Origin: Deltaproteobacteria bacterium
GTDB taxonomy: Bacteria > Myxococcota_A > Polyangia > Polyangiales > Houyiibacteriaceae
DNA length: 64,000 nucleotides
Assembly (NCBI GenBank): GCA_034670305.1
Contig: JAXMNT010000034.1
Location: forward strand, 1-64,000
Direction of reading: 5' to 3'
The notes under the pieces are model-generated. The model was not told the origin of the DNA and made no database searches. It saw nothing but the letters and a program-made list of their open reading frames with translations. The stretch's first letter is position 1. Every line of letters starts with the position of its first letter. Below are positions 1,629-64,000 of the stretch, piece after piece. Made by a program: the position numbers and the translations under genes.

Positions 1629-2492
1629 TCACCGCACCTTCAACGACCGCAAGAGCGGACACGACGCGAACTTCTCCCAGGGCACGGTGGAGGGTGATTC
1701 GATCTTGCGGCAGACGACCGCGGCGCGCGTTCCCGCGGGGACCACGGTGACCAGGGTGGCGCAGTGCCGGGGGCGCATGAACGGACGAACGAACGCGAGG
1801 GCCGGCCACTCCTGGGCACCGATTCGGATCGTGCCCTGTTCGAGGGCGAGCGCTCCATCCTGCAGCAGCGCGTGAGCCGCGGGGTCGGTGCGGGCCCAGA
1901 GTGAACGCACGCCCTCGTGACCGGGCAGGAACTGGGGCGCCTCCCAGACCTGCAGACCGTCCATCCCGCCCGGCGGACCCGAGACGGTGAGCAGAAGCGG
2001 GGGCGCGTGTTGCCGGGACTGCACGTAGCGCGGTCCCGCATCGACCTCGACCTCGAGCGGCGACGGGGCCGCTTCGATCACGCGCGGCGCGGACGTCGAT
2101 GCGGGTTGGCCCGCATCGACTTGCCCTTCGAGCGGCAACGGCGCCGGTTCCAAGGGTTCGATCACGCGCGGCGTCCGAGTCGACCCGCGCTGGCCCGCCA
2201 CGACTTCGATCATGCCTTGGAGGTCCGCGCGCTTTTGGTTCAGCACCCGCAGCGCCTGCTTCAGCTGGTCGACCGCCGTGCGCTGTTGCGCGAGCTCGGG
2301 CGAGCCCATCTTCTCGAGCCGCTTCTCATCGGCGATCGCGACCGCAACCGTCTTCTTCAACCAAACGAGCGCGGCGTCGTACTCGGCGACCATGGGGCGC
2401 AGCGTCGCCAAACGCGTCTCGATGTTCGGTGCGTCCACGAGCGCAGCGCGAAGATCCCGCCGGACCAAGTCCACCACCGTCCGCATATCCAT
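1629..2492 (-). CDS. Protein with shortened PspA/IM30-like N-terminal coiled coil and unknown C-terminal domain
   Basis: LKKTVAVAIADEKRLEK and QQRTAVDQLKQALRVLNQK resemble PspA helices; Pro-rich linker follows. Confidence 0.6.
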   Translation of the reverse strand: MDMRTVVDLVRRDLRAALVDAPNIETRLATLRPMVAEYDAALVWLKKTVAVAIADEKRLEKMGSPELAQQRTAVDQLKQALRVLNQKRADLQGMIEVVAGQRGSTRTPRVIEPLEPAPLPLEGQVDAGQPASTSAPRVIEAAPSPLEVEVDAGPRYVQSRQHAPPLLLTVSGPPGGMDGLQVWEAPQFLPGHEGVRSLWARTDPAAHALLQDGALALEQGTIRIGAQEWPALAFVRPFMRPRHCATLVTVVPAGTRAAVVCRKIESPSTVPWEKFASCPLLRSLKVR

Positions 2493-2561
2493 CGGTGCAT
2501 CGTACCAGCGCGCTCCCGACTCGAAGCCCGTCGCGCTCTCGCAGGTTGCTGCGCCGAGGGT

Positions 2562-8289: not shown

Positions 8290-8505
8290 GGCGCCGACTT
8301 CATACCACCAACCCTGGCCGAGTTGCCCCGGTCTCCCGACGAACGAGCCCACGCACGCGAGCGGCACAAGGTCGAGTCCGAGCGTGCGGGTCTCGGGACG
8401 TGCCGACCGCCGGAATGCACCGAGCATGCGGCCCCGCAGGAACAAGAGCGCGCGCGTCGCGGCGATGCACGATCGCTTGCCGCCGGTGACGCTCCGCGCA
8501 TGTGC

Positions 8506-11757: not shown

Positions 11758-11957
11758 CGGGCAAGTCTGCCAAAGACCCGCAGGTCCTGTCACTTGGCCC
11801 GCCTACCGGTGCGAGACGACCCGCCACTCGCCGGCGACGTACACCACCAGCAATGGATCGAAGCCGGTCGCGCATTCGATCGGGAGCAGGGGCTCTTGCC
11901 CAACGAGCGCGGCCCGCTCGACGTTCCATGCCGGGTGTTTGACCACGCCTGAGTGGT

Positions 11958-36737: not shown

Positions 36738-36980
36738 CGAGGCAGACGCAAGACACAGTTCGCCGCCTACCTGGCCGGCGCCGCATACAACCTCCTACGC
36801 GTCGCGCGGCTGCGGAGCTGCGCCGCGTAGCACCGACCGATGCCCGGCGGCTTCGTCCGCTGGGCATCGGGCTCCGATTCACGGCCTCGCCGTCGCGAAA
36901 CACACGGCGTCCACGACGCGGGCAAGGGCACGGGCAAGGGCAACGGCAAGGGAGCAGGTCGCTTTTCAGCGACCTGCTAG
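36735..36980 (+). mobile_element. Right-end remnant of an IS5-family-like element
   Basis: 36735-36830 reads YRGRRKTQFAAYLAGAAYNLLRVARL...*; ends TTTTCAGCGACCTGCTAG. Confidence 0.7.
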
Positions 36981-39523: not shown

Positions 39524-41038
<1,515 letters not shown>

Positions 41039-43672: not shown

Positions 43673-46597
43673 TCAGCGGCACGCCGCCCCATCCAGCATG
43701 ACGTATTCGAAGTTGGCCCCGCCGAACCAATCATAGAAGGTCAGTTCGAGCCGATAGGTCGCTCCGGTGTCGCTGCGAAGGATGACGGTGTCCTCGTGCG
43801 CCGTGAAGTCGATGTTGCGATCGGTCAGCGTGAGCGCCCGGGCGTGGCAGGAGCTGACGAACTCAAATTCGGGCGACGAGACGACACCCCCCACGGCCGA
43901 GGCCTCCGGTAGGACCCGGAACCTCCGCGCCCCAAAATCCACAACCTCAAGCATGAAATCGGAGACGCCTTCCTCCGGGGTTCCCTCTTCCAGATCGACG
44001 TGTCGCCTATACGGCGTCCCACTCTCTCGCACCGTGCCCCCCCGCGAGCAATCGACGCGGAGTTGGGCCACGTCCATCCGAAGGTAGGTCTCGGTGCGGA
44101 GATTGCCCAGCTTGAAGACCTCTCCGGTCGCGAGCTTCACGAGCACGACCCGGGTGTCGTCCAGCGGCACTCGATGCAAACGATCGTCGAAGGTCGCAGA
44201 GGCCACGTCGCAGCCCGTCACGTCGTCGAAGGTCGCACCAGAGAGGTGGGCGACCTCGACGCCGAGCGCGCGGTTCTGAAAGATGAAGTACCCGGTGCGG
44301 GCGTCGTTCTGGACGACCTCGAAATCCCACTCTTGCCATGGGTCTCGCGGGAGATCGTACTGGAACGAGTTCCAACGCTCGTACAACAGGTTGTAGCCAC
44401 GAGACGACGACACGCGCACGTCTGTCACGGGATCGGCGCTGCAGTGCTCGAAGCACCCGCATGGGCCTGCGCCCATGGGGTCGATGTCGCAGTCGCCTCC
44501 ACATCCCGGGGTGTCCGCGACGCCGCAGCCGCAGGTGCCTGGTTCGCTCTTGTCACCGTCGAGCGGACATCCATCGACGCAATCGGCCAGGGTGTCCTCG
44601 TCGCGGTCTGCGTCGGGCGTTCCGCAGCCGCAGACGCCGGGTTCCTCCTTCTCGATGTCCGCGGGGCACCCGTCGTCGCAATCGAGCACCCCGTCCATGT
44701 CCGCATCGGTGTCGGGCGAGCCACATCCACAGCCACCGGGCGATCGTTTCGCCGGGTCGTCCGGGCACTCGTCCACGCAGTCCGGCGCGCCGTCTCCATC
44801 TCGGTCCGTCTCCGGCGTTCCGCAGCCGCAGATCCCCGGCGCGTCCTTCTCATGCTCCGGGCAAGCGTCCACATCTTCGGCGGGGAGGCAGCCGAGCATC
44901 GCCGCGCCGTAACCAGCCGCTCCGACCGCTCCGGGTGGGCACGCGCGACCGCCGCAGACATCGTTTCCCGCGCCGCCCACCCCGAACGAGAGGTTCACGC
45001 GCGAGACATCCAAGGGGTCAGGGGTCGTACACGCGAGCGCGACGGAGTTCCCCCCGCCACCCGCGGCGCCAACGCCGCCGACGCCGCCGACGCCGCCGAC
45101 GCCGCCACGGCTCGCATCTGGGTACCTGAAGACTACGCCCAGACTCTCCAGTCCGTCGGGCCCGCCTGCGCCTCCCAAGCCGCCGGAGCCGCCCGCGCCG
45201 CTTACGCCGCCCGCGCCTGAGACGACGTTGACTCCATGCAGGACAAGACCGGATGAGTCCGAGACCAGGATGCCGACCGCGCTGCCGCCCGCCTGTCCGC
45301 CGCCGCCGCCGAGCCCGCCGCGGCCCGGGGCGCCGCCTGCGGCGCCCGCTTGGGGCGGGGCGCCGAACCGGTTGTAGGTGCACGCGCCGCCGCCGGCACC
45401 GAACGTCCCAGGCGCGCCCGGCTCGCCTGCTCCGCCGGGCGCCGCGAGCCAGGCGTCGCTCGGTAGGGCTGCGGCCCCTGCTGCCCCTGCTGTCCCCGGC
45501 TCACCAACACGGCCGTCCCGGGCGGCGGATTCGAAGTCGCAGTGCTCGAACGCCCCGCCCTGGACCCGCAGATCGTCCCGTGTACCCGGAATGCCGATCC
45601 ACGGGTATCGATTCGGGACGCCCTCCCCACTGGAGCCGCCGCCCGCGCCGCATGAGTGCCTCTGCGGTCGGGGGTCCTCGTGTTCACAGCTGAGGTCCGA
45701 GCAGTTCAGCTCGCAGCCGGCCAGATGCGCTGCGCGGTAGGCACTGTAGCTGGCGAAGTCGCGCGGACCGGGGCTGCCGGTCTCTCCGTCTTCGCCCGCC
45801 GCACCGTCGCGCGCGTCGGCGGCTTGGACTTCCACGTCGATGACCTGAAGCGCCGGTGAGCCGGCGACGCGCAGGGCCACCGAGCCGAGCCCGTCCGGCT
45901 CGCCCGCGCCCGCCACGGTGGCGATCGTCAAGTGGGACAAGTAGGCCGCCGTCGTCGCGCCTTCGACCGACACGGCGACCGCTGCGTTCACGTCCGGGTG
46001 CCGGTTCTCTTGGCGCACCGCGACCTCCCACCGGGGGCGCTCTGCGGGGTCGGGGGTGAACTCGGGGTACGTCCCGAAGCCGCCGTAGACACCCACGCCG
46101 TCGCCGATTCGAAGCGGTGTCGCGAACACCGGAGAGCCACCCACGAGGATGGCTTCCCGGCGGCTCCCATCCGCGTTCACCACCGCGAGCGCGGGCTCCA
46201 TCGCGTCGAAGGGGCGCTCCCGGCTCCCGTCGCCGTCGCCCTCACTGTAGCTGGGGTCGACGAAGACGAACGGGAAGCTCCGCGAGGTGGGGTCGCACTC
46301 GACGGTCATCAGCCGAAGGGGAGGCTCCACACAGCGTGTGCCGTCGTCCTCGGGCACGCAGGCCCCGAGGTCGCACGTGCCACACGGACGACCGAGCTCG
46401 CAGGTGCCACAGCCCGTGCACGCGTCGGTGGTCGCGTCGGAACCGGGCTCCGCATCTCCGCCGGCAGGCCCCGCGTCCTCGACGGGGGCGCCGTCGCGTG
46501 CCCCGGCGTCGCGCGTGCCGCCGTCTTCGTCTCCACCGTCGTCGCCGCCGCCGCACGCGCACGCCACGGCCACCATCACAATCAAGCAAGAACGCAT
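43673..46597 (-). CDS. Large lipoprotein: DUF1565/beta-helix-like region, Gly-rich segments, TSP3-like Ca-binding repeats, duplicated C-terminal domain
   Basis: ACAC lipobox; FVD...GDGSRERPF; CPxDxxKxxPGxCGCGxxDxDxDxD repeats. Confidence 0.8.
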   Translation of the reverse strand: MRSCLIVMVAVACACGGGDDGGDEDGGTRDAGARDGAPVEDAGPAGGDAEPGSDATTDACTGCGTCELGRPCGTCDLGACVPEDDGTRCVEPPLRLMTVECDPTSRSFPFVFVDPSYSEGDGDGSRERPFDAMEPALAVVNADGSRREAILVGGSPVFATPLRIGDGVGVYGGFGTYPEFTPDPAERPRWEVAVRQENRHPDVNAAVAVSVEGATTAAYLSHLTIATVAGAGEPDGLGSVALRVAGSPALQVIDVEVQAADARDGAAGEDGETGSPGPRDFASYSAYRAAHLAGCELNCSDLSCEHEDPRPQRHSCGAGGGSSGEGVPNRYPWIGIPGTRDDLRVQGGAFEHCDFESAARDGRVGEPGTAGAAGAAALPSDAWLAAPGGAGEPGAPGTFGAGGGACTYNRFGAPPQAGAAGGAPGRGGLGGGGGQAGGSAVGILVSDSSGLVLHGVNVVSGAGGVSGAGGSGGLGGAGGPDGLESLGVVFRYPDASRGGVGGVGGVGGVGAAGGGGNSVALACTTPDPLDVSRVNLSFGVGGAGNDVCGGRACPPGAVGAAGYGAAMLGCLPAEDVDACPEHEKDAPGICGCGTPETDRDGDGAPDCVDECPDDPAKRSPGGCGCGSPDTDADMDGVLDCDDGCPADIEKEEPGVCGCGTPDADRDEDTLADCVDGCPLDGDKSEPGTCGCGVADTPGCGGDCDIDPMGAGPCGCFEHCSADPVTDVRVSSSRGYNLLYERWNSFQYDLPRDPWQEWDFEVVQNDARTGYFIFQNRALGVEVAHLSGATFDDVTGCDVASATFDDRLHRVPLDDTRVVLVKLATGEVFKLGNLRTETYLRMDVAQLRVDCSRGGTVRESGTPYRRHVDLEEGTPEEGVSDFMLEVVDFGARRFRVLPEASAVGGVVSSPEFEFVSSCHARALTLTDRNIDFTAHEDTVILRSDTGATYRLELTFYDWFGGANFEYVMLDGAACR

Positions 46598-46690
46598 TTC
46601 TGTTGATACCACGCGCGAGCGAAACTTATGCGATTGATTCATGCGCGAAGCGTCTGAATACGTGTTAGTACCGACGGTTCGGAGGTGCAG

Positions 46691-49600
46691 GTGGGTCGCG
46701 AACAGTTGATGGTTGTGGCATTGATGTCCCTATTTGGTGGGTGTGGAGATCCCACTCCGGAACCGACAGAACCACTGTGTGTCGTGGTGCCTGATGTACT
46801 CGCCGGTGGGCTCGGTGAGCAGTGCGCGCACGACGACGACTGCCCCTGCGGCGCATGGTGCGAGCGGAGCGTCTGTGCGAGCGAATGCAGCGAAGACACC
46901 CCCTGTCCTGGCACAGCAGAATGCGACCTCGGGAGCGGGCGCTGCCAGGAGACGGGGGCCGCTCTGGTTCGCGGTCCCCGAAACCAGGTCCTGCGAACGA
47001 GCAGCTCCGAGGTCATCGTCCGGCCTTCCGGCCGTCTCACGGTGAGCGCGGAAGGGGACGAACCCGTCGCGTTCCGAGTTCGGGCGACGCCGGGCTTCGA
47101 GGTGAACTGTGGTGGCGACTTCGACGAGCAGTGTGACGCGAACGCGTCCGCCTCGGCTCCCGCGATCCTCGAGCTGCGGGCCTCCGAGGCCGCACCGGAT
47201 GGCTGCGCGCCTCTGACCGCGACGCCCTGTCCGAGCGGGACGTTGACCTTGACTTCGGACTTCGACCGGCTCGATGTCGCGCTCGTGGTGTCGCCGGGGG
47301 CGGCGGCGCCCGCTCCCCTGACGGGTACCTATGAAGCCACGCTCACGGCGGTCGGCGCGGGGCTGTCAACGAGGCCGAGTACGGACGACCTCCTCGAGGG
47401 CGCCCGCGGCATTCGCGTCCAGGCCACGATCGAGGTGTTCGCAGACGACACGATCCGCCTTCGCGACGAGCTGGGGGTGTTCGGCGACGGCGCCGTTGGC
47501 ACACTCACCGCGGGCGGGGCGGGCGAAGTCGTCCTCTCGATCCCTCGGTTCGCCTGGCTGACGGGTACCCGCGGGGACTCCCTCGACCCACAGATCGTGA
47601 CGAGCTTCGACGACGCGCTCCTTGCGCACGCGGACGGTGCCATCACCGGAGAGCTGTTCCAGCGCTTCCATGGGATGACCGATGCCGCCGAGACCGCGAC
47701 GCTCCGCTGGGCACTGGCGGCGGGCCGCCTCGAGCAGCAGCCGGAGCTGGGCACGCCGCCTGCGGTCCCAGCGCCCGCGGAGCTTCCCCCGGCCGACCGA
47801 CCGGTGGCGGAGGACGAGAGCGCGCCTGCGGGCAGCGCCCTTGAGCTCGCGTGTGCTTCCGGCGCGCTCAGCGACAGCGAGCTCGACGCCGAGGGCGACC
47901 TGCGTTGTTCGGATGGGGCGACGCAGGCGGTCCTGCCTCGTTTCGGCGACACGGTCGACCCCGTCGATGGGTCCGCGCTGCTCGCGTCCTGCTACGGAGA
48001 TCTTGAGGGCGCGGGGAGTGAGTGTGTCGATCGAGAGCTCGCGGTCGCTGCGCTCGTGCGCGCGCTGGATGGGCCCGCGGCCAGTGCGGAGCGGGCGCTC
48101 GGCCTTCGACTGCTCCAGCGCTGGATCACCCTGCACGGGTTCATCGCGCGGGAAGGCTTGGCCATCGAGCGTCTGCACGCCTGGTTCGCCGACGGAGACC
48201 CGCCCCCGATCGCGGATCCCGATGGACCGGGACCCCGAGAGTGGGTCGAGCCGGCGCTGGCCCGCTCGCTCGACGGCTGGGATCTGTTGTTCCATCCCCG
48301 CGTCGGCTCCGCACTGGTGGCGAGCGAGGAGGGGAGCCTGGCGTCGCCCGACTACCGGACCCGCTTCGGGTACGAGCCACCGGTGGCGACCGAGCTCGCG
48401 GACGCCGATCTCGGGATCTCCGTGACGCTCCTCGACGTCCTGCGTGATCAGCTGCGCGCGGCCGAGGTGGTGGTCCGGCGCCGCATGGGCGCCGACGGCC
48501 TCACCGAGGCGATGGCGCTCGGCCGCGCCGCGCTGCGCCGCGCCGTGGTCGCCCTCGCGTGGGCCCACGGGCTTCTCCACGACGCCACGGCAGGGTCCGA
48601 TCCTGTCTGGGCCGAACAAGCCGACGCGGCAGCGCAAGGCGTAGGCTCCGCGATGCGCTCGCTGTTGGCGGCCATCCGCGCTGCGGAGAGCGGGGCGAAC
48701 GCGCTGGGGATCGAGGACATCGACCTGCCCCTCTATCGCATCGGAGACGAGGTCGGCAGCGCCGAGCGGTTCGCAGCGGCGAGCGACTACCTGCTGGGGG
48801 CAGGCGGGGTGCCCGGCGTTGCGCCGAGCCTGGTGGAGGCGGCCCGCACCGCGTGGGACGACGTCCGGAGCAGCTGGCGCGACAAGCTCACCCGGGACTT
48901 TCGAACGTTCTCGGTGGAGAACCGAGTCGAGGATCTGCAGCGAGAGTATGGGGCGCAGATCGCCGAGCTCTGCGGCAACCCAGCCTGGGCGGAGCTTGGC
49001 GTGCTCGAGTTGTCGGCCGACGAACTCAACCCGAACCACTGCTACATCGTCGACCGCGACGGGTGTCCCACGCCCGACCGTCTCGAGGCGCTGATCACAC
49101 CGACCGACGTCGCTCAAGACGTGTGTGTGATGTTGGCGTTGAACCGCTCGTTTCGACCACTCGATGTGGACGACATGGAGATTGGAGAGGCGCTCGACCG
49201 TCTGAACACCACACTCGAAAACGATCGGCGCTCGCGTTCGCCCGATCGCGCGCTCCTCACGTTTCTTCACCGGACGCGCCGGGAGCTCCCCCAGTTGCTC
49301 GAGGACTACCGCGACCAGTTCCCCGTGCCGGGTCCGCTGGCGTACGAGAACGCACGCACGCGATGCGGGGCGTTGGTGCACGAGCTCGGCGGAGAGATGA
49401 GCGCGGACGAGGAAGGGCGGGCGTGCACGTCGGCGCGCGAGTGCCACCCAGCGATGCTGTGTCGCATGGGGAGCTGCACGGCCGTCGAGCCGCCCGCGCC
49501 AGATGCCACTTGCTATCAAGGGACGCTCGGAGAGCTGAGGCTCGCGCTCCAGGCGAGCGCCCGAGAGGTGGACATCGCGCGCTCGGAGTTTGCGGATCGG

Positions 49601-51067
49601 TCGGACGCCTACGACATCGCCGTGCGCAGCTGTCTCATCCAGCAGACGGGCGGCGAAGACTTGCTCTCGGCGCTGAGCGAACACACCGACACGATGGTCG
49701 GAATGCGTCAGGCCAAGGGAGCCGCGGACGGTATCGCCGCGATCGCGGCCGCCACCGCAGACGCCTCGGACAGCACCGATGCGTTCTTCTCCGGCGGGGT
49801 GGCGCCGGCGGCGCGGCTCGTCCAGGGCGCAGCGGAGCTCGCGTCGACCATCATCGACAGCGAGATGGACGTGGCGCAGCTGCGGTTCGAAGAGATGTCG
49901 GCGCGGCTCGAGGCGAGCATCGAGAACGCGACCTGCTTCAACGACGCGCGCGCGGAGATGGTCGGTATGCGGACGGCCCAGTTGCGCATCGAGCAGGCGG
50001 GCATCGAGAACGCGCGCCAGGCGCTGGAGTTCGCGAACGCTCAAGCGACCGTCCTCGCGCTCGTCGGCGATGGTCAAGCGGTGGTTCAGAGCACGCGCGA
50101 TCGCGCCCCCTCGGGGTTGCGTGTCGACTTCGCGTTCGACACCGAAGTGGCCGAGCTGGAAGCCCGGATGCATCTGGCCCGGCGCGCCGCCTACCTGGCC
50201 GTGCGCGCGGTCGAGTACGAGTTCCAGACCACGTCGGCGGAGCGCGGACGAGTCCTCGCGGCGCGAACCCCGGCCGCGCTCGAGTCGGCCCTCGGGCGCC
50301 TCACGGCGTTCACCGCCACCGGGGCCCCGACCGGAGGCGGACAGCCGCAGACCCTGCACGCTGTCGTGAGCCTGCGCGATCACCTCCTTCAACTCGGAGA
50401 CCGCACCGGGGGCGCACCGGGCTGGCGCAACCTCTCGCCGGCGCAGCGCTTTGCCATGGTGCTCGGCTCGGACCGCTACGCGGTCTACGAAGCTGGGGAC
50501 TACATCGGCCAGGAGATCCCCTTCACGATCTCTCCGGACGGAGCCGCCAACCCAGAAGGGATCACGATCCTCACCGGTACCGATTGCGCGGAACGCGTCT
50601 GGTCGGTCAACGCGTCGGTGCTCGGCGAGGACCTGGTGCCCGGGAGCGAGACGACCTTCACCCGTGTCGTCATTCGCAAGCGCAACACCTTCCACAGCCA
50701 GTGGTGCGCCGACCCCGGATCGGAGGGTCCGGCCTATCAGTTCGGGAGCGTCCGACCGGAACGCAACCTGTTCCTCGACCCACTCGTTCATTCGATGGTC
50801 GAGACGGATGTGATCTCGGTTGGGCCGAACACCGCCGCGATGGACCCGGCCCGGAGCTTCACGAACGCCCGCATCTCAGCGTTCTTCAACATCTCGCGGG
50901 CTGAGCTCGAGGACGAGAGCTACTTCAACGGGGACTCGACCGAGCTCGCAGGTCGCGGACTGTACGGGGACTACGCACTCTTCATCCCCGCGGAGTCGCC
51001 CTTGGCGCTCGGGAACGTTGACGACCTGCTCCTCCGCATCGACTACGTGTCCGCCGCGACGATGTAG
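46691..51067 (+). CDS. Giant lipoprotein with TcA toxin-like C-terminal region
   Basis: GGAGG RBS, FGGC lipobox; long coiled coil with Ala/Gly tip; AYLAVRAVEYEF, VSLRDHLL, GRGLYGDYAL...DDLLLRIDY. Confidence 0.7.
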   Translation: MGREQLMVVALMSLFGGCGDPTPEPTEPLCVVVPDVLAGGLGEQCAHDDDCPCGAWCERSVCASECSEDTPCPGTAECDLGSGRCQETGAALVRGPRNQVLRTSSSEVIVRPSGRLTVSAEGDEPVAFRVRATPGFEVNCGGDFDEQCDANASASAPAILELRASEAAPDGCAPLTATPCPSGTLTLTSDFDRLDVALVVSPGAAAPAPLTGTYEATLTAVGAGLSTRPSTDDLLEGARGIRVQATIEVFADDTIRLRDELGVFGDGAVGTLTAGGAGEVVLSIPRFAWLTGTRGDSLDPQIVTSFDDALLAHADGAITGELFQRFHGMTDAAETATLRWALAAGRLEQQPELGTPPAVPAPAELPPADRPVAEDESAPAGSALELACASGALSDSELDAEGDLRCSDGATQAVLPRFGDTVDPVDGSALLASCYGDLEGAGSECVDRELAVAALVRALDGPAASAERALGLRLLQRWITLHGFIAREGLAIERLHAWFADGDPPPIADPDGPGPREWVEPALARSLDGWDLLFHPRVGSALVASEEGSLASPDYRTRFGYEPPVATELADADLGISVTLLDVLRDQLRAAEVVVRRRMGADGLTEAMALGRAALRRAVVALAWAHGLLHDATAGSDPVWAEQADAAAQGVGSAMRSLLAAIRAAESGANALGIEDIDLPLYRIGDEVGSAERFAAASDYLLGAGGVPGVAPSLVEAARTAWDDVRSSWRDKLTRDFRTFSVENRVEDLQREYGAQIAELCGNPAWAELGVLELSADELNPNHCYIVDRDGCPTPDRLEALITPTDVAQDVCVMLALNRSFRPLDVDDMEIGEALDRLNTTLENDRRSRSPDRALLTFLHRTRRELPQLLEDYRDQFPVPGPLAYENARTRCGALVHELGGEMSADEEGRACTSARECHPAMLCRMGSCTAVEPPAPDATCYQGTLGELRLALQASAREVDIARSEFADRSDAYDIAVRSCLIQQTGGEDLLSALSEHTDTMVGMRQAKGAADGIAAIAAATADASDSTDAFFSGGVAPAARLVQGAAELASTIIDSEMDVAQLRFEEMSARLEASIENATCFNDARAEMVGMRTAQLRIEQAGIENARQALEFANAQATVLALVGDGQAVVQSTRDRAPSGLRVDFAFDTEVAELEARMHLARRAAYLAVRAVEYEFQTTSAERGRVLAARTPAALESALGRLTAFTATGAPTGGGQPQTLHAVVSLRDHLLQLGDRTGGAPGWRNLSPAQRFAMVLGSDRYAVYEAGDYIGQEIPFTISPDGAANPEGITILTGTDCAERVWSVNASVLGEDLVPGSETTFTRVVIRKRNTFHSQWCADPGSEGPAYQFGSVRPERNLFLDPLVHSMVETDVISVGPNTAAMDPARSFTNARISAFFNISRAELEDESYFNGDSTELAGRGLYGDYALFIPAESPLALGNVDDLLLRIDYVSAATM

Positions 51068-51334: not shown

Positions 51335-53656
51335 TCAGCGGCAGCGGAGCCGGCTGCTTCGGGTGGTGCTCGTACAACCCATCCCGGTGGGCGTCCCGAT
51401 GCCTCCACACGCGCAGTCTTGGTGCGTGGTCGATTCGCCGCATTCGGCGGTGTGCGAGAGCGGACCAGCGCCGGCGCAGCGGCTCGTACACATGCTGCCC
51501 GACGTGGAGAAGCAGGTGACCGCGAGTGGCTGCTTCGTCTCGCCCGTCGAGCAGTCGTAGTCGAAACTCGCCGCCGTGCCCCCCATCCCACCACAGATGG
51601 TGGGGCAGTCCAACCCGTGGCTGGTGTAGCACCAGAAGCCTTCCCGAGCCGTGCGGGTGCAGTCACAGATGAGCGCGCCTGGGCTGTCGCAGTAGGGGGT
51701 GTCGAAGAAGCTGGTCTGATTGGGTCGCACGTCTTCGAGAAAGTCCCGGCAGTCCGTCTTGGGCAACGGCCCGCCCGCGCACGCGGCCCCCATGGGCGCG
51801 AACCCGTCGTTGTCGAAGTCTTCACTCACCAGGACCCCGCCACCGCTGCTGCAGTCGTTGTCGATGCGGTCGCAGATCTCGGTGGCCCCTGGGTTGACCG
51901 CGGACGCCCCGTCGTCGCAATCGGTGGTGTCGGTGTCGACCGGTGCAGTCAGCGTGAAGTTGTCGCCGCACGCGCCGCAGATGCTCATGCCCATCGCGCC
52001 GCTCGGTGCGTAGCCATCGTCGTCCGCGTCCGCGTAGCAGGTCGTCGTGACCGTCTCGTCTACGGCGCCGTCGCAGTCGTCGTCGGCGCTGTTGCAGCTC
52101 TCGGCGACCGGCGAGATGGAGCACGCACCCCATGTCGCGCCTGGCCCACACGTTTCGGTGCCCGCCGCACAAGCGCCGGGCAACAGACAACCGCGTGACA
52201 TGCCCGGCGTGCAGTCGCAGTCCTCGTTGACGGCGCCGTTGCAGTTCTCGTCCACACTCCCCGCGTCGCAGATCTCGGGCGCGCCGGGGTTGATCGCGAA
52301 CACGCCGTCTTCGCAATCGGTCGCACCGGCTCCGGGTGGCCGGTTGGTCGTCGTCACGGGGCAGTTGCCCACCTCGGGTCGGCTCGCGTCGATGCAGCGC
52401 GACGCCCCGGTGGCTCCGCTGCCCGCGTAGGAGTCGCCGTCTCCATCTGGGTAGCAGGTGGCGCGAAGCATCTCGTCGACCGCGCCGTCGCAGTCGTCGT
52501 CGATGGAGACGCCTTCCAGGCAGACCTCCGAGGCACCCGGGCGCGACGCCGAACGATCGTCGTCGCAGTCGATGTCGGCCCCGGTCGGCGCACGGTTGGT
52601 CGAGTCGGTCGGGCAGCCCCCCACCGACTCGCGCCCCACCTGCGGACACTCTGCGCGCGCGGTGGCTGCGGCGGGCGCGAAGCCGTCGTTGTCGAGGTCG
52701 TCGTAGCAAGTCACCGTCATGCCTTCGTCGGTCGCGCCATCGCAGTCGTCGTCGACCTCGTTGCAGGTCTCGAGCTCCGGTTCGATCGTGCACGTCGCGC
52801 TCCAGGTCCCGCTGTCGCAGACCTCCACGCCCGCCGCGCAGGCGCCGCCGAGCGTACAGCCACGGGTCTCGCCCTCTTCACAGTCGCAGTAGCCTTCGGG
52901 GTTGGCCTCGCCATCGCAGTTCTCGTCCACCGGTGGCTCGGCGCTGTCGCAACGCTCCATCGCGCCGGGGTTGATCATGCTCTCGAGATCGTCGCAGTCG
53001 CCGTCGTTCTCCGCGAACCCTTCGGGTGCGCTGCATGCATCGGTGGTCGTGCCGTCGATGTCTCCAAAGCCGTCGCCGTCGCCATCCGGCCAGTACGTGA
53101 CCAGCACCTCTTCATCGACCAAACCATCGCAGTCGTCGTCGCGGCCATTGCAGCTCTCCGTGGCGTCGGGGTTGGTCCCCCGACGGGCGTCGTCGCAGTC
53201 GGAGCCGCAGACCAGCCCGCTGCCGTCTTCGTTGCAACAGAGCGCGTCTGGGCTGTCGTCGCCGTCCACGTCGCGGAAACCAAACGTGCGCGGGTCGCAA
53301 TCTTCGTCGACGTTCTCCAGATCGCAGACCTCAGCGTTGCCAGGGAAGCGACCGGGGTCCATGTCGTCGCAGTCGGCGCCGCCGCAGTCGGTACCGTCCA
53401 CGCCATCGCCGTCGAGGTCGCACTCCGTTTCGTCGCACGCATCGGCGACCTCATCGCAGACTCCATCGCAAGGCGCGCTCCCGGCTACACACGCGCCGTC
53501 GTTGCAGGTCTCGGTGCCATTGCAGAACCGGCCGTCGTCGCAGTCTGCCGCGGAGGTGCACAAACCACCGTCTCCCCCGGCGTCCGAAGTCATGGTGTCG
53601 TCGTCTCCGCAGGCAAGTGCCGCGCAGAGCAATACATACAATGAAAGCCGTCCCAT
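51335..53656 (-). CDS. Lipoprotein with MopE-like putative metal-binding repeats
   Basis: ALAC lipobox; repeated ExCxxxDxDCDG and YxDxDxDG. Confidence 0.87.
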   Translation of the reverse strand: MGRLSLYVLLCAALACGDDDTMTSDAGGDGGLCTSAADCDDGRFCNGTETCNDGACVAGSAPCDGVCDEVADACDETECDLDGDGVDGTDCGGADCDDMDPGRFPGNAEVCDLENVDEDCDPRTFGFRDVDGDDSPDALCCNEDGSGLVCGSDCDDARRGTNPDATESCNGRDDDCDGLVDEEVLVTYWPDGDGDGFGDIDGTTTDACSAPEGFAENDGDCDDLESMINPGAMERCDSAEPPVDENCDGEANPEGYCDCEEGETRGCTLGGACAAGVEVCDSGTWSATCTIEPELETCNEVDDDCDGATDEGMTVTCYDDLDNDGFAPAAATARAECPQVGRESVGGCPTDSTNRAPTGADIDCDDDRSASRPGASEVCLEGVSIDDDCDGAVDEMLRATCYPDGDGDSYAGSGATGASRCIDASRPEVGNCPVTTTNRPPGAGATDCEDGVFAINPGAPEICDAGSVDENCNGAVNEDCDCTPGMSRGCLLPGACAAGTETCGPGATWGACSISPVAESCNSADDDCDGAVDETVTTTCYADADDDGYAPSGAMGMSICGACGDNFTLTAPVDTDTTDCDDGASAVNPGATEICDRIDNDCSSGGGVLVSEDFDNDGFAPMGAACAGGPLPKTDCRDFLEDVRPNQTSFFDTPYCDSPGALICDCTRTAREGFWCYTSHGLDCPTICGGMGGTAASFDYDCSTGETKQPLAVTCFSTSGSMCTSRCAGAGPLSHTAECGESTTHQDCACGGIGTPTGMGCTSTTRSSRLRCR

Positions 53657-53762: not shown

Positions 53763-55112
53763 TCAGGTCGAGGGGCAGCCGAACGTGAAGTCGAGGCCGT
53801 CGTCCACCTCGGCCCCCTGTACGGCTTCGCAGGTGGCCGGACAGAGCGCGATCCCATCGTCGTCGTCGTACGCCCAGCCCCCGGCGGCGTCGCAGTCGTC
53901 GAGCGCCGCGACCGGCACCAGCAGTCCGCTGCCTTCCTCGTCCCGCACCGCGACGCTCAAGTGTTCGGGCTCGAACGTGCCGCCATCGGGAACCGGCGGG
54001 ATCGGCGCGCTGCACTGGACGCGGCGGTTGCTCACGGTGGACTCCGTGAATGCCGTGGCGAACGGTGCCCACAGAGAGTCGCCGTCGCAGATCGAAACGC
54101 GAACGCCACCGGTGCGCGCGACCAGCTCGGTGTAGGTCAAGCCGCTGGCGCGCACATTGCTCCCGTCCCCGAAGCGGCACCGCACCGTCGCATCGTCCTC
54201 GTCTCCAAAGCCGTAGATGCCACTGACCACGTAGCCGTCCATGAGTCCGCCCCAGCGGGCATGGAGGATCCCCTCGGGTAGGGTCCGTGTGTTGAACGGG
54301 TTGGTGCCGCCCGGGCTCGACTCGAACCAATCGGCGGTGGCTGAGGGATCGCTCCCAGGAACGAAGCCCGCGTCGGTGGCGTCGACCATGCGCGCGTTGT
54401 TGTGGGTGACAAAGACCAGCGCCTTCGCGGCGTCGGGACGCAAATGGTCCACCCACGCCGGGCCTCCTTGCGAGTCGCCTTCTCGGTAGCCATCGGTCTG
54501 CCCGAGCGTGCCGAGGAACTGCTCGAGCGGGCTCGCGCCTCCCATGTCGATGGAGACGTGGAAGAAGCGCGTGCCGTTTGAACAACTGCTGTCCGCACTC
54601 AGCGGCGGAGGCACACAGATCGCTTCGGTCCGCATGGGTCCCACCGAGGACTGTCGCAGGCTCAGGACGACCAAGCGGTGGTCGAGCCCACGTGCCGACA
54701 ACGCAATGGCGATCATGTTCAGCTGGCGCTCGAACGCGCGCAGCGTGGGTGCCAGTGAGGACGAGTTCTCGACCACGAAGATCACGTCGACCGCATCGTG
54801 GTGCTCGAAGGTCGCGGCGACCGTCTCGGCGACGCATTCGTCGGGCGCGTCTCGCCCCACATCGGCGCTCCCATCCGGGCCCACGTCGGCGCTCCCATCC
54901 GGCCCGACATCGACGTGCCCCACATCGACGCGTGCATCCAGCCCGACATCCGCACCGGTCGCATCGACCGGCCCGACATCGACGGCCGTCGCATCCGGGG
55001 ACGCGTCGGCAAGGCCCGCATCATCGAGGGGCGCGGGGTCCTCACCACACGCAAGAAGCAGAAGCACCAGGGACGCGAATACCCATTGAACACGAAGCAT
55101 GGGGTCGAGCAT
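53763..55112 (-). CDS. vWA-domain (CglB-like) lipoprotein
   Basis: LLLAC lipobox; DVIFVVENSSS degenerate MIDAS; GWAYD...LCPATC...FGCP. Confidence 0.78.
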   Translation of the reverse strand: MLDPMLRVQWVFASLVLLLLACGEDPAPLDDAGLADASPDATAVDVGPVDATGADVGLDARVDVGHVDVGPDGSADVGPDGSADVGRDAPDECVAETVAATFEHHDAVDVIFVVENSSSLAPTLRAFERQLNMIAIALSARGLDHRLVVLSLRQSSVGPMRTEAICVPPPLSADSSCSNGTRFFHVSIDMGGASPLEQFLGTLGQTDGYREGDSQGGPAWVDHLRPDAAKALVFVTHNNARMVDATDAGFVPGSDPSATADWFESSPGGTNPFNTRTLPEGILHARWGGLMDGYVVSGIYGFGDEDDATVRCRFGDGSNVRASGLTYTELVARTGGVRVSICDGDSLWAPFATAFTESTVSNRRVQCSAPIPPVPDGGTFEPEHLSVAVRDEEGSGLLVPVAALDDCDAAGGWAYDDDDGIALCPATCEAVQGAEVDDGLDFTFGCPST

Positions 55113-55395
55113 ATCAGCAGCTCTTTGGTCGCCGACCGCTCGAGGTCGAACGGGATGGCGACCGACCCAGCGATCTCGTCGTGCGCCTCGGCCCACCCCA
55201 CTTCCCCTTCTACGGGAGCCTCGGAACGCGGAGGAGCGTGGCTTCCGGTGAACGTCGGCGAAATGACCACCCACGGCGCAGCGGGCGAGTTCGCCGCCGT
55301 CGAGATGGTGCCCGGCGTGGACCCCGAATCGCTCGGACCTGCTCTACCGGCTCTTCATTGAAGACCACGCTTCGCGTTGTCGGAGCGATTGCTTG

Positions 55396-55437
55396 GCATG
55401 CCAACGACTCATCCCCGGACCGAAGCGCGAAGCGCCC
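55396..55437 (+). repeat. REP-like repeat, family A, upstream of the Y1 transposase
   Basis: gcatgccaacgactcatccccggaccgaagcgcgaagcgccc vs gcgtgccaacgtctctccccccggacggagcgcgcgaagcgccc downstream. Confidence 0.75.
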
Positions 55438-55522
55438 CGCAAGACCCAATGGCGGCAGCGCGCGAATCGCCCCGCGTCTGGGCTCCCGCAACTGTCGACC
55501 GGCTGTGTCGATGAGGGGCTTC

Positions 55523-57157
55523 GTGACCGCGCCGCGAGCGAGAGTGCATGGAGAGACGCTGGCGATGACGCGGCGGACGAACCTGCGGAAGTTCGTGCTC
55601 GGCAACTGGGACCCGCAGGTCTCGCAGATCTACCTGTACTCACTTGGGGCGGCAGCGCTTGGTGCCGACGATGGGATGGGGGAGCGGCTGTCGGAGGCGG
55701 TGTTTCATCAGATCTGTTTGATGGGTACGCACCCGCATGTGTTGTTGACCGATGTGCGCGGGCGGGCGCCGAGGATCTTTTGTCGGGCGCACTCGTGGAG
55801 CGCGAAGGCGATCAACGTGCTGCTTGCGAAGCGCGGCTATCAGCGGCTTGGGCAGGTATACGACGGGCGGCAGATCTCGTTCGTCCGAACCATGGACTGG
55901 TCGGCGGAGTTGAAGCAGGTGCTGTATCAGTTCTTGAACCCGGTGGCGGCGGGGTTGTGCGAGAAGGCGGCGGACTACGACGGGGTGTGCACGCCTTTGG
56001 AATGGATCGGTGGGTACCGGTTGCGGGTGAAGCGTCCGGATGTGTTCTTCGACCCGTCGTTTCCGGCCGAGGTCATTCTCGTGTTCGGTCCGCCGCCGGC
56101 GGCGTACATCGCGTATGGCGGGGATACGAAGCGGATGGTGGCGGACCTGCGAAGTGACGCGCGCAAGCAGGAGAAGGCGATCGCTGCGATGCGACCGTTT
56201 CCGGTGCTCGGCGAGCGGAAGATGCATCCGTGGGATGAACCGAACACCTTGGTGGAACGGTGGAGTCCCAACCGGCCGCTTGTGACGATCGGTGTCGGTG
56301 GGGCCTGGGAACGCAAGCGGCTGCGGGAGCTCGTGCGGGCCGAAGTGGAGCAGTTCTGCGTTGGGCACGAGAAGGTGCGGCAGGAAGAGAAGGCGCAGAT
56401 CGCGCGGCGGGTGAAGAAGGCAAAGGAGCGGAGACGCGCGGAGGCGCTGGAACGAGAACGTCCTGCACAGGAGTTGGAGTGCGGCTCCGAGGGCTCTCAG
56501 GAGCCTGCGCGCGAACAGGAGCCGGACACCGCCGCTCGTGAACAGGAACCGCAACCGGACACCGCTCGTGAACAGGAAGAGCCTGGAGGCGACGCGGTGC
56601 CTGGAGAAGAAGGCGACGAGGCACCCAAAGAGGAACGCGACATCGTGTACCCGTACGGCACCTACAAAGCGGCGCGCGAGCGACGCCACGAAGTGAAGCC
56701 GCCGAGTGGCGAGGCGTACTTCCTCGCGCCGGGTGTGTTCGACGAAGGCTGGGCCAGCCGGTACGTCGAGTGCGAGTTGCCGAAAGAGGTCGTGTTGGTG
56801 ACCGGACGTGCGGTCGCGGACGAAGAGCGACGCAGCGAACGAGAAGAGTCCGCCCAAGACGTCTCCGACTTCTACGGCACCATGTACGACAAGCTCGTCG
56901 AGCGTGAGAAGGAAGCCTCCTCGAGAGCCTCGAGTGCGGAGGTCGAAGACCAGGCGGATGAACCCACCGCCGCCACCGACCGCAACCAGCAGAAGAGCGC
57001 CACCAAGCGACCGAGCATCCAACCACCGATGGCACCGCACCCAGTTCGCGAGCGCTACGAAAAGCGCCCCGACTTGTCCGACACCAACCGAGTCACCGTC
57101 CGCCGAGACCTCCTCCGACCAGGCGGAGCTCCTCGGTCCGACGAAGACCCCGACTGA
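55523..57157 (+). CDS. RAYT-like Y1 HUH transposase with long charged insertion and C-terminal extension
   Basis: TAPR...TRR; HUH THPHVLLTD; YQFLNPVAAGL; late YPYGTY; GAGGGG RBS before GTG. Confidence 0.85.
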   Translation: MTAPRARVHGETLAMTRRTNLRKFVLGNWDPQVSQIYLYSLGAAALGADDGMGERLSEAVFHQICLMGTHPHVLLTDVRGRAPRIFCRAHSWSAKAINVLLAKRGYQRLGQVYDGRQISFVRTMDWSAELKQVLYQFLNPVAAGLCEKAADYDGVCTPLEWIGGYRLRVKRPDVFFDPSFPAEVILVFGPPPAAYIAYGGDTKRMVADLRSDARKQEKAIAAMRPFPVLGERKMHPWDEPNTLVERWSPNRPLVTIGVGGAWERKRLRELVRAEVEQFCVGHEKVRQEEKAQIARRVKKAKERRRAEALERERPAQELECGSEGSQEPAREQEPDTAAREQEPQPDTAREQEEPGGDAVPGEEGDEAPKEERDIVYPYGTYKAARERRHEVKPPSGEAYFLAPGVFDEGWASRYVECELPKEVVLVTGRAVADEERRSEREESAQDVSDFYGTMYDKLVEREKEASSRASSAEVEDQADEPTAATDRNQQKSATKRPSIQPPMAPHPVRERYEKRPDLSDTNRVTVRRDLLRPGGAPRSDEDPD

Positions 57158-57887: not shown

Positions 57888-58156
57888 CAACAGCCCACCT
57901 CCCGGAGCCGTCAAACGAAGTTCAAAAGCGTGCCAACGTCTCTCCCCCCGGACGGAGCGCGCGAAGCGTCCCACCTCACGGAGCCGTCAAACGAAGTTCA
58001 AAAGCGTGCCAACGTCTCTCCCCCCGGACGGAGCGCGCGAAGCGCCCATCCTCTCCCCCCGGACGGAGCGCGCGAAGCGCCCTCGGAGCGCGCAAAGCGC
58101 CGCTCCGGGACGGAGTGCGCGAAGCGCCCCCCACGCGAACGGAGCGCGTCCGCGCG
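57888..58156 (+). repeat. Nested, progressively shorter family A repeats
   Basis: 57888-57968, 57970-58047, 58051-58082 and decayed cores, ending in GCGCGAAGCG or a variant. Confidence 0.9.
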
Positions 58157-58217
58157 GCTAGAGCGAATTGACTGTTGGGAAGGATTTGGCGGAAGCTGCC
58201 TCAGAAAGGTCTAAGGG

Positions 58218-58976
58218 ATGGAAAGAAGATACTGGAGCCAGTTCGTTGACGCCAAGACTGTGCTCGGATGGAGGTGTCCACGCTGCAACGTGGGGCACCT
58301 TGAAGCGGAAGCTGAAGGGTGGAGGGAGGAAGATGTGAAGGAGAGCGGGGGAGCGGACTGCGACTGGGAACCGGACTGGGTGCGAAACCTATGGACCGGC
58401 AGTTTGAGATGTAGGTCCTCGTCATGCGGCGATGTGGTGGTTGGTATGGGATACACGAGTCTGGATCAGGAGGTGGATGAGGAAGTCGGCCTCATTTGGG
58501 TATCCAGGTATCATCCGCTGCTGTTCGAGCCCCCACTGCACATCGTCGCTCTGCCCAAGTCGATTCCGGCTCTTTTGGAGACCGACCTGATCGAGGTTTT
58601 TCGACTGTACTGGGCATCGCCGTCAGCGGCAGCAAACCGACTCCGAGTAGCGATAGAGCACTACTTATCCTTGCAGAAGGTGCCGCGGTCACGGAGGACA
58701 AAGAAGGGGAAGCTTGTGACGCTGCCACTCCACACTCGCATTGAACGTTTCAAGCAGGCTCGCCGGACCAATGCGGACGTTGCCGACCATCTCCTGGCAC
58801 TAAAGTGGCTCGGTAATGAGGGTACTCATGATGGAACGCTGACCCACGACGACGTCCTGGATGGGCTGGTGATTCTGGAGGAGGCCCTTCGGCACATTTC
58901 TGGAAACGCTTCGGCATCGAAGGCACTGACAATGTCGGTCAACAAGAACCGAGGGACCGGGAGGAAGAAGCGGTAG
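58218..58976 (+). CDS. DUF4145 (HEPN-like) protein with N-terminal Zn-ribbon
   Basis: CPRC...CRSSSC; SPSAAANRLRVAIE...LHTRI...KWLGNEGTH. Confidence 0.82.
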   Translation: MERRYWSQFVDAKTVLGWRCPRCNVGHLEAEAEGWREEDVKESGGADCDWEPDWVRNLWTGSLRCRSSSCGDVVVGMGYTSLDQEVDEEVGLIWVSRYHPLLFEPPLHIVALPKSIPALLETDLIEVFRLYWASPSAAANRLRVAIEHYLSLQKVPRSRRTKKGKLVTLPLHTRIERFKQARRTNADVADHLLALKWLGNEGTHDGTLTHDDVLDGLVILEEALRHISGNASASKALTMSVNKNRGTGRKKR

Positions 58977-59009
58977 AGACGGCGGGGCAACGCGAGGCTA
59001 AGGCCAGTA

Positions 59010-59130
59010 CCCCGGACGGAGCCGCCGAAGGCGTCGTCTCCCCGGACGAAGCGCGCGAAGCGCTTTAGACCGAGCGCGCGAGCGCTGCAAACGTCTCTCC
59101 CCTCGGACGGAGCGCGCGAAGGCGCGCGCG
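59010..59130 (+). repeat. Cluster of four family A repeats
   Basis: ccccggacggagccgccgaaggcg; ccccggacgaagcgcgcgaagcgc; gaccgagcgcgcgagcgc; aaacgtctctcccctcggacggagcgcgcgaaggcgc. Confidence 0.85.
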
Positions 59131-59137
59131 TCGGCAT

Positions 59138-63148: not shown

Positions 63149-63153
63149 CTACC

Positions 63154-64000
63154 TCACGAACACCCCATCGAGTTCCCGCAGTTCAGGCACTTATAACAAG
63201 CCCCATTCCGAACCGTAATGTTCCCACACTTCTCGCACATGGGCGCATCCCCCATCATCTCCCCAAGCTGCTGACTCAGCGCATTCTTCGGCCCACCAGC
63301 CACAGCCGGCTTCGCCCCCTCAGTCGCCGCGTCCGCCGAAGCAGAGTCATCAAACCCAAACGTCGCCTGCTCGGCCTTCTTGAACTCAGCCGGCGGAGGC
63401 GTGGAATGCCCGGCCGTCCCCTCGGCCCGCTGCGCCGCCGACACATCGGTCGCGCTCAGAAGCTCTTCCTGCTCCTCCTTCGGAGGCACCTGGGCAAAGT
63501 CGTACCGCTTCAAGTACTCGACGCCCAACACCCTAAAGACGTAGTCGATGATGCTCGTGGAGAACTTGATGTTCGGGTGGCCTTCGACGATGCCGCCGGG
63601 CTCGAACCGCGTGAACGTGAACTGGTTGATGTAGTTCTCGAGCGGGACGCCGTGCTGCAGGCCCATGGAGATCGAGATGGCGAAGCAGTTCATCAGGCTG
63701 CGGAAGCTGGCGCCTTCTTTGTGCATGTCGATGAAGAGCTCGCCGAGGGAGCCGTCGTCGTACTCGCCGGTGCGGAGGAACACTTTGTGTCCGCCGATGC
63801 GGGCTTCTTGGGTGAAGCCGCTGCGCTTCTTCGGCAGGCGGTGCCGCACGCTGTCGGGCGGGCGCAGGCCTTCTTGGGAGGCGTTGGCGACGCGCGGGCG
63901 CGCGGGCGCGGTGATGTCTCCGTTCGAGGTGATCTTCGTGACCTTGGCGGCGAGCGTCTCGGTCTCTTCTTCGTCCTCGTTGTCCTCGTCGGACTGGGCG
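63154..64000 (-). CDS. nrdJ: Class II (B12-dependent) ribonucleotide reductase, C-terminal part, runs off window
   Basis: [27 protein letters not shown]...FTFTRFEP; terminal CEKCG...[12 protein letters not shown]. Confidence 0.92.

Follow-up and report, generated by a model that had tools for sequence, protein, structure and literature searches.

A candidate lipid-anchored, shortened homologue of the Tc toxin A subunit encoded by a Deltaproteobacteria bacterium

The window analysed here is a stretch of 64,000 nucleotides (G+C about 69%) from contig JAXMNT010000034.1 of the Deltaproteobacteria bacterium assembly GCA_034670305.1 (GTDB family Houyiibacteriaceae), and the subject is the gene at 46685-51067 (+), which encodes a protein of 1460 amino acids (aa). 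Tc toxins are huge soluble injection machines of insect and human pathogens, and are found in genomes via the Pfam domains of TcA, TcB and TcC. The gene product was interpreted as a lipid-anchored, shortened homologue of the Tc A subunit, which probably acts mainly as a pore former on its own. Common descent with the pore-forming plus TcB-binding module of TcA is very likely, on the basis of fold, language-model features and the operon position of relatives. The protein belongs to a real, conserved, unnamed lipoprotein family, and is a new, lipoprotein-type, shortened variant of TcA.

For structural comparison, residues 395-1460 were folded with AlphaFold2 on a 66-sequence alignment (model m65052c191481, in which model residue n is protein residue n+394). 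The model had a predicted local distance difference test score (pLDDT) of 82.5 and a predicted template modelling score (pTM) of 0.81; it was helical up to model residue 816 and then formed a beta domain at model residues 828-1064. Against the PDB, Foldseek returned 22 matches at E <= 0.001, and all 21 that were listed were TcA subunits at probability 1.00: TcdA1, TcdA4, XptA1, XptA2, YenTcA (chain B) and TcaA-TcaB, with E values of 3e-7 to 4e-5. The next match after the TcA group had an E value of 1.8e-2, a gap of three to four orders of magnitude. With VIA-align, 265-271 residues were placed on TcA at a root-mean-square deviation (rmsd) of 3.6-4.3 Å and Z scores of 16.4-16.9 (e.g. Z 16.9, rmsd 4.1 Å, 271 residues), and model residues 277..1063 fell on TcdA1 2002..2516, the pore-forming and TcB-binding part. 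The original prediction had proposed a TcA-like C-terminus, and over the last ~520 residues Foldseek, VIA and ESM Atlas all supported a TcA-type hairpin followed by a TcB-binding-type domain.

The TcB-binding-domain-like beta domain (residues 1220-1458, 50342..51058, +) was recognised by VIA, by ESM Atlas and by its predicted self-association. The isolated TcB-binding fragment of TcdA1 (6l7i_A, residues 2327-2516) was superposed by VIA on model residues 826..1063 with Z 10.7 and rmsd 3.2 Å over 146 of 179 residues, the domain being compared as part of the model of residues 395-1460. In an unbiased structural search of 48,161 chains, 6l7i_A was the only match to the beta domain. With residues 1205-1460 as query, the nearest named cluster in ESM Atlas was 'TcA C-terminal TcB-binding domain-containing protein' (score 0.95); 207 of 256 features were shared and 19 of 30 hits belonged to that set.

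Ahead of the beta domain, the model contains a hairpin of four long helices (residues 946-1139, 49520..50101, +), which is included in the alignments that Foldseek and VIA give with the pore-forming domain of TcA. In model numbering the helices are 552-592, 597-633, 645-681 and 685-745, with a low-confidence turn at 634-645, and they align in the right place and order to TcdA1 2002-2327, though unrelated bundles reach an equal Z. The hairpin tip (residues 1012-1050, 49718..49834, +; turn 1028-1039 of low confidence) is rich in Ala, Gly and Ser, and across the family it comprises 57% A/G/S/T/C with about 9 charged residues in about 55. The long helical hairpin with an Ala/Gly-rich tip, which had been read from the letters alone, was recovered in the model. 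In many family members a Cys pair (..KDC.. and ..C.A..) flanks a tip loop of variable length (alignment A2, model residues 612-662), and this pair could be a disulfide clasp; both cysteines are missing in the window copy. Connecting helices (residues 1149-1210, 50129..50314, +), which carry ARRAAYLAVRAVEYEFQ, were placed between hairpin and beta domain by the model and the family alignments.

All the motifs quoted in the original prediction were found in the 1460-aa translation. The stretch AADGIAAIAAATA...FFSGGVAPAA occupies residues 1012-1043 (the Ala/Gly-rich stretch AADGIAAIAAATADASDSTDAFFSGGVAPAA), AYLAVRAVEYEF residues 1169-1180, VSLRDHLL residues 1228-1235 and GRGLYGDYAL...DDLLLRIDY residues 1423-1454. 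The last three fall in columns that rank among the best conserved in the family alignments, and are therefore not due to chance.

The reading frame is a single long open reading frame of 1460 aa plus stop, which starts at GTG 46685 and ends with the stop codon at 51065-51067; alternative starts are GTG 46691 and ATG 46709. The frame proposed earlier was correct, and its start at 46691 is the third codon (GTG) of the frame that opens at 46685. A database protein of 1452 aa (P0002), 100% identical to the 1460-aa protein (P0001), begins at ATG 46709, which is residue 9 of P0001. Whichever start is used, the lipobox Cys20 stays the same.

The protein is a lipoprotein, as judged by the pattern of its N-terminus (..ALMSLFGG-C20), in which a hydrophobic stretch (..LMVVALMSLFGGC) precedes Cys20. 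The signal peptide with lipobox LFGG-C20 and Gly at the +2 position (46685..46744, +) is conserved across the family, and the Cys is nearly invariant in the family alignment. The strict lipobox pattern was matched by 94 of 131 full-length family representatives, and several of the 37 misses are visibly lipobox-bearing (..LLFAC, ..LSAAC). Among the 94 matching sequences, the residue after the lipobox Cys is Gly in 45 and Lys in 2. The lipobox of the original prediction was thus upheld by its recurrence in the family, and the Cys-rich and beta-rich N-terminus that had been noted with it was also present, as detailed below.

Behind Cys20 lies a Cys-rich knot (residues 32-87, 46778..46945, +), in which the family alignment has ten invariant cysteines (C32, C47, C53, C55, C59, C64, C68, C74, C80 and C87). 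The N-terminal model (residues 18-400; mc43b410e2ebc), which is confident at pLDDT 84.4, is beta-rich and consists of three pieces: the small knot, an immunoglobulin (Ig) sandwich and a closed beta barrel. The PapD/MSP-like Ig-fold sandwich (residues 97-206, 46973..47302, +) matched 5ghu_A at Z 11.0 and rmsd 2.0 Å over 94 aligned residues (VIA-wide). The small closed up-and-down barrel (residues 207-350, 47303..47734, +) matched designed beta barrels at Z 10.7-11.3 and the NHBA C-domain at Z 8.1. Both pieces are, in the model, generic folds of surface and binding proteins. A Pro/Ala-rich low-complexity linker (residues about 351-394, 47735..47866, +; pLDDT <70 at the end of the N-terminal model) leads into an alpha-helical region (residues 395-935, 47867..49489, +), which was delimited from the AlphaFold2 model and the family alignments and contains a small insert rich in Cys ahead of the hairpin. 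Residues 672-705 of this region carry the conserved motif N(P/A)LGIEDxDLPLY..RF(S/A)A(S/A)SDYLLG. Structural matches of residues 395-935 were of a generic solenoid type only (Z about 10), and an equivalence to the TcA shell would be conjectural.

Head-to-tail self-association is predicted for the C-terminal domain. When residues 1216-1460 were modelled together in four copies, the complex-prediction scores were 0.58, 0.55 and 0.58, versus 0.00 for the best of three controls (the mark for this score is reached by 20 of 30 solved pairs and by 1 of 23 single chains); unlike in the calibration, four copies and a custom alignment were used here, and the result may echo the solved TcA pentamers, which tells against giving these values full weight. 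The runs agreed in at least 60% of contacts at pLDDT 64-66. The predicted contacts are heterologous and head-to-tail, with ring geometry: surface A (residues 1322-1325, 1394-1400 and 1414-1420) meets surface B of the next copy (residues 1220-1225, 1405-1412 and 1458), and the conserved residues R1396, E1409, G1416 and E1420 are among the contacts. By analogy with TcA, and with the support of this interface prediction, the protein would more probably than otherwise form a ring-shaped membrane channel.

Two divergent relatives were found beside TcB/TcC-type genes. In genome G394, a lipobox-bearing relative of 2138 aa, whose identity is 31% to residues 936-1456 (E 5e-64) and 28% to residues 445-764, lies upstream and on the same strand of a 457-aa open reading frame, which is followed by a 1961-aa fusion of SpvB, FG-GAP, TcdB_midN and RHS (fusions of this TcB/TcC type are called BC fusions hereafter). 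In genome G404, a relative with 28% identity to residues 943-1459 (E 2e-36) lies directly upstream of a 2137-aa BC fusion (L107, G404:C746, 9155-15565, -), which ends in a GH-E HNH/EndoVII nuclease domain (PF14410). Because of these sequence matches to BC-linked relatives, the hairpin and beta-domain module of the family is held to be homologous to A-position modules; since a divergent sister clade sits directly upstream of TcB/TcC-type cocoon toxins, the module is regarded as a true A-type module. The nuclease cargo of G404 is DNA-targeting, which, in the light of polymorphic toxins, suggests anti-bacterial rather than insecticidal use.

The SpvB and TcdB profiles had no match on the window's contig, and in the genome (7.9 Mb, 105 contigs, 96% complete) profile matches were confined to contigs C3, C5 and C27. 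The original prediction of no SpvB/RHS partner in the window was therefore borne out; its wider wording, a protein without TcB/TcC, applies to the locus and fails for the genome, which encodes three SpvB + FG-GAP + TcdB_midN + RHS fusions of 2478-2785 aa on C27, C5 and C3, and for the lineage, in which divergent relatives are operon partners of such fusions. Two of the three form A-BC-like pairs (L103 and L104): homologous proteins of 2245 aa (C27:66280-73014, +) and 2129 aa (C5:13811-20198, -), both with no Pfam match, are encoded directly upstream of the BC fusions at C27:73990-82344 (+) and C5:6329-13763 (-). The 2245-aa protein was aligned to the family by hhalign at a probability of 27.6% (E 6.5e-4) at the hairpin base (the stretch of residues 1149-1210), while canonical TcA aligned to it at a probability of 0.06%. 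In ESM Atlas, the nearest cluster of both proteins was TcA_TcB_BD at 0.82, which is a lead only. From these weak hhalign and ESM leads, the 2245-aa and 2129-aa proteins are probably non-canonical A subunits. The BC fusion on C3 (C3:200648-208843) has no A-like neighbour. It is flanked by direct repeats of a ~1.69-kb element of 97.7% identity (C3:197925-199609 and C3:210847-212531); further copies of this element were seen on C6 and elsewhere on C3, and its open reading frames have no Pfam match.

An alternative is that the window protein is a regular A subunit whose BC cocoon is encoded elsewhere, so that the ring would dock the beta-propeller and the channel would translocate the C-terminal toxin. 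The most plausible partner would then be the C3 fusion, which has no A-like gene beside it, whereas the C27 and C5 fusions each own an upstream A-like gene. The three BC fusions of the genome, the TcB-binding fold of the beta domain and the operon partnership of the divergent relatives in G394 and G404 with BC genes speak for this alternative. Against it, both cases of adjacency fall in family f58, a single distant clade whose proteins are longer (2138 aa; an open frame of 2581 aa), and in 80 family loci (1.24 Mb; of 79 of these together with the window's own locus, 29 have at least 5 kb on both sides) no BC gene and no relative of the genome's BC fusions or A-like proteins was found. In a sample of 401 genomes of the phylum, TcdB_midN was present in 128: it was found in 14 of 33 family-positive genomes and not in the other 19 (in family f20, 12 of 15 were without it), and 114 of 368 family-negative genomes carried BC genes, so that enrichment in family-positive genomes was little. 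BC-negative genomes with N stretches (G006, G019, G031, G055 and G256) are among these, and many are incomplete metagenome-assembled genomes (MAGs), which takes some force from the absences. Overall this alternative was considered unlikely, although use of an unlinked BC protein by the window copy is possible. The locus structure and the genome co-occurrence suggest independence of the window copy from BC, a point on which we are evenly divided. The reading as a pore former acting mainly on its own is preferred because close relatives are mostly without a linked BC gene and many host genomes are BC-free.

Several results weigh against the TcA-derived interpretation. At the sequence level, Pfam on the whole protein matched 0 families (no neuraminidase-like, VRP1, receptor-binding domain (RBD) or TcA_TcB_BD match), NCBIfam gave noise only, and phmmer and profile searches of all PDB sequences returned no TcA. 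PF18276 (TcA_TcB_BD) matched none of 67 family C-terminal domains even at E <= 10. The same model works in the phylum: canonical TcA, with open frames of roughly 2400-3700 aa, was detected by it in 22 of 401 genomes; it matched in none of the 22 genomes of the window's own GTDB family. When the family was compared by hhalign with the C-terminal ~940 residues of 12 canonical Myxococcota TcA (alignment A4), the probability was 2.3% (E 0.021), which is not significant, although the aligned stretch was the topologically expected one, which starts where the channel helices end and continues into the beta domain. A profile-level likeness to TcA, to which the original prediction had looked for confirmation, was thus not obtained. 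The tails of canonical Myxococcota TcA (..DLLLVLQYTVD and ..DVLLVIDYGL) resemble the family tail ..VDDLLLRIDYVS, a likeness that speaks for the TcA reading but is no test. By its sequence, the family escapes the Pfam models of Tc toxins completely and is not filed as TcA by Pfam criteria. PF19703 (DUF6201) matched 16 of the 67 C-terminal domains (best E 0.011) and was regarded as noise.

At the structural level, the Foldseek global template modelling (TM) scores were low and the rmsd was about 55 Å; the parts are therefore alike, and their mutual arrangement in the monomer model is not. In the unbiased search, TcA reached Z 14.9, versus Z 15.1 for an unrelated designed four-helix bundle (helices 553..730 only) and Z 10.2-10.8 for ClyA-type toxins, and the rest of the list consisted of other helical proteins; because unrelated helical proteins score equally, the helical part alone is not diagnostic. 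The ESM recognition value was 1542, below 2300, the level reached by 91 in 100 known families. The monomer model shows the hairpin as a compact four-helix bundle folded back and not as the extended TcA needle, and the hairpin tip is only mildly hydrophobic (Kyte-Doolittle mean of 0.41; 8 of 51 residues charged). No neuraminidase-like domain was seen in the window protein, and TcA receptor-binding domains were absent among the listed structural matches of the N-terminal model.

Some of these results are shared by a further alternative, in which the protein is a non-toxic envelope or surface lipoprotein with a TcA-like fold, for example an adhesin or a structural oligomer, whose bundle never opens and whose C-terminal domain serves oligomerisation only. 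Such a role would suit the closed bundle and mildly hydrophobic tip, the likeness of the N-terminal domains to generic binding or chaperone-type beta folds, the lone gene with no immunity-like or toxin neighbour, and the AraC-type regulators that lie nearby in 11 of 80 loci. It was judged still less likely than an unlinked BC partner, given that the order of hairpin and TcB-binding-type domain is retained, that the motifs at the hairpin base are conserved and that sequence-level homology links the family to BC-linked relatives. A convergent likeness or modelling artefact, in which long helices and a beta sandwich would attract TcA without common descent, is in line with the uniformly negative sequence and profile tests and with the equal Z of unrelated helical proteins, but is highly improbable in view of the purely TcA composition of the listed Foldseek matches and the gap to the next one, the match of the beta domain alone to the isolated TcB-binding fragment, the independent language-model search that points to the same family, and the relatives in the A position of A-BC loci.

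The preferred reading, a lipid-anchored pore former of TcA descent, can be set out as a mechanism. A lipidated Cys20 would be followed by the disulfide-rich knot and the two small beta domains, which may constitute a binding module, and then by the helical region of ~540 residues, the hairpin of ~190 residues and the beta domain of ~240 residues. The C-terminal domains are predicted to pack head-to-tail into a ring, and, by comparison with TcA, the ring would gather the hairpins into a channel of alpha helices, with the tips inserted into a membrane. The lipid tail would hold the assembly on the outer membrane of the producer or on vesicles shed from it. A role in the killing of prey or competitors, with surface exposure and dependence on contact, is possible, though we consider it doubtful. 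The fullest version of this picture, that in predatory Myxococcota and Bradymonadia a ring of lipid-tethered miniature TcA on the outer membrane or on shed vesicles drives a needle into a neighbour on contact, kills it by the pore and in some lineages also injects nuclease-tipped BC cargo, is speculative and unlikely; were it true, no contact-dependent killing device of this kind would have been described before, and no natural Tc translocase would be smaller.

The size of the family was assessed as follows: a word-indexed search returned 35 relatives of the protein, and an exhaustive search of cluster representatives (50% identity) returned 537 at E <= 0.001, 367 of them at E <= 1e-30. Most relatives have 1500-1800 aa, the match always extends to their C-terminus, and they are labelled 'hypothetical protein' in the sources. 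A member from a cultured organism is annotated in Lujinxingia vulgaris (FRC98_17435). Among contigs of one genome per species, 116 stretches encode a relative; 80 of these loci were kept, almost all from MAGs that carry the labels Myxococcales, Myxococcota, Bradymonadales, Polyangia, Deltaproteobacteria or the like. A second family copy, of 1730 aa, lies on contig C22 of the window's own genome. With the C-terminal domain profile, relatives were detected in 33 of the 401 genomes of the even phylum sample (1-5 copies each), and they were patchily distributed: family f20 had them in 15 of 34 genomes, the window's own family in 1 of the 22 others. None of the papers listed by full-text literature searches dealt with a lipoprotein-type or shortened TcA of Myxococcota. 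In the main text of the genome-wide Tc survey PMC7861908 the terms 'myxococc' and 'lipoprotein' are absent; its supplementary tables may list Tc loci of this phylum. PMC13018210 deals with teneurin-like YD-shell lipoproteins of Myxococcota, which are not A subunits, and describes their delivery machinery as unknown.

The gene stands alone in the window: its neighbours are a divergent gene upstream (43673-46642) and a convergent one downstream (51335-53656, -), which encodes MopE-type repeats. The stretch is contained in four DNA sequencing runs of one study, which may be its source, and no RNA data set containing it was listed. Across the 80 family loci no neighbour was conserved, and generic neighbours were patchy (Ser/Thr kinases in 12 loci, AraC regulators in 11, and histidine kinases in a 7-locus and a 4-locus cluster). 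The AraC-family regulators occur in mixed orientation, either adjacent to the family gene or in its vicinity (e.g. L037:8528-9745 and L055:4790-6094). Elsewhere in the window, MopE-type putative metal-binding motif repeats (PF11617) were found in two proteins that flank the region (51335-53656, -, and 39524-41038, -), and 36977-39028 (-) encodes a fusion between the membrane domain of an SLC4-type bicarbonate transporter (PF00955, E 2e-159) and a PTS EIIA-2 domain. Large open reading frames with no Pfam match were predicted in this high-GC DNA at 7351-11952 (+, 1533 aa), 43673-46642 (-, 989 aa) and 54578-57157 (+, 859 aa). The G+C content drops from about 0.66-0.71 to 0.58-0.60 across 58001-64000, the last 6 kb.

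The family is common in one phylum (33 of 401 genomes, up to 5 copies; 537 clusters) and yet invisible to the Pfam Tc models. If it is a working channel, the A-type needle would exist in a much shorter, lipid-anchored form, the needle module could be uncoupled from the BC cocoon, and bacterial predation or competition might be among the uses of Tc-type machinery, a GH-E nuclease domain being present in one linked BC fusion. A minimal A subunit would lend itself well to the study of needle assembly and insertion, and the family may show how injection machines are built in minimal, cell-bound form.

Among known systems, TcA subunits are the closest. They have the same order of antiparallel long helices and TcB-binding-type beta domain and a similar C-terminal tail motif, the C-terminal domain of the window protein is predicted to form a head-to-tail, ring-like arrangement, and the genes of relatives of the window protein likewise precede TcB/TcC-type genes. 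By itself, TcA is able to form channels and can be toxic. The differences are of size (1460 aa versus open frames of about 2400-3700 aa for canonical TcA in the same phylum; a hairpin of about 190 residues versus the TcdA1 2002-2327 part covered by the alignments), of recognisable domains (no Pfam TcA_TcB_BD, VRP1 or neuraminidase-like match, unlike canonical TcA) and of location, a lipoprotein with a Cys-rich N-terminus being set against a signal-less soluble exotoxin; canonical TcA is not known to have a signal peptide. The window gene stands alone, whereas TcA is encoded next to TcB/TcC, and adjacency in the family is seen only in the divergent clade of G394 and G404. By the TcA domain list taken from PMC11435725 (alpha-helical shell, neuraminidase-like domain, inserted Ig-like RBDs, a linker that drives injection and a trefoil knot at the linker's base), two conserved TcA parts are present by fold, a counterpart of the helical shell is uncertain, and no neuraminidase-like domain, linker or knot was demonstrated.

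The 2245-aa (C27) and 2129-aa (C5) proteins of the same genome share with the family the A position of A-BC pairs and a tail of the same type (..DVQLMLKYRYWT); they are much longer, were unseen in the P0001 genome search and have no BLAST-level likeness to the BC-linked member of G394. A ClyA-type pore former was considered as the principal interpretation and rejected, its Z being within the range of unrelated helical bundles and the beta domain having no counterpart. The ClyA family (ClyA, Hbl-B, HblL1 and MakA; VIA Z 8.1-10.8) likewise has a helical bundle with a hairpin able to swing out, but lacks any equivalent of the C-terminal beta domain and the N-terminal lipoprotein module, both of which the window protein combines with its hairpin.

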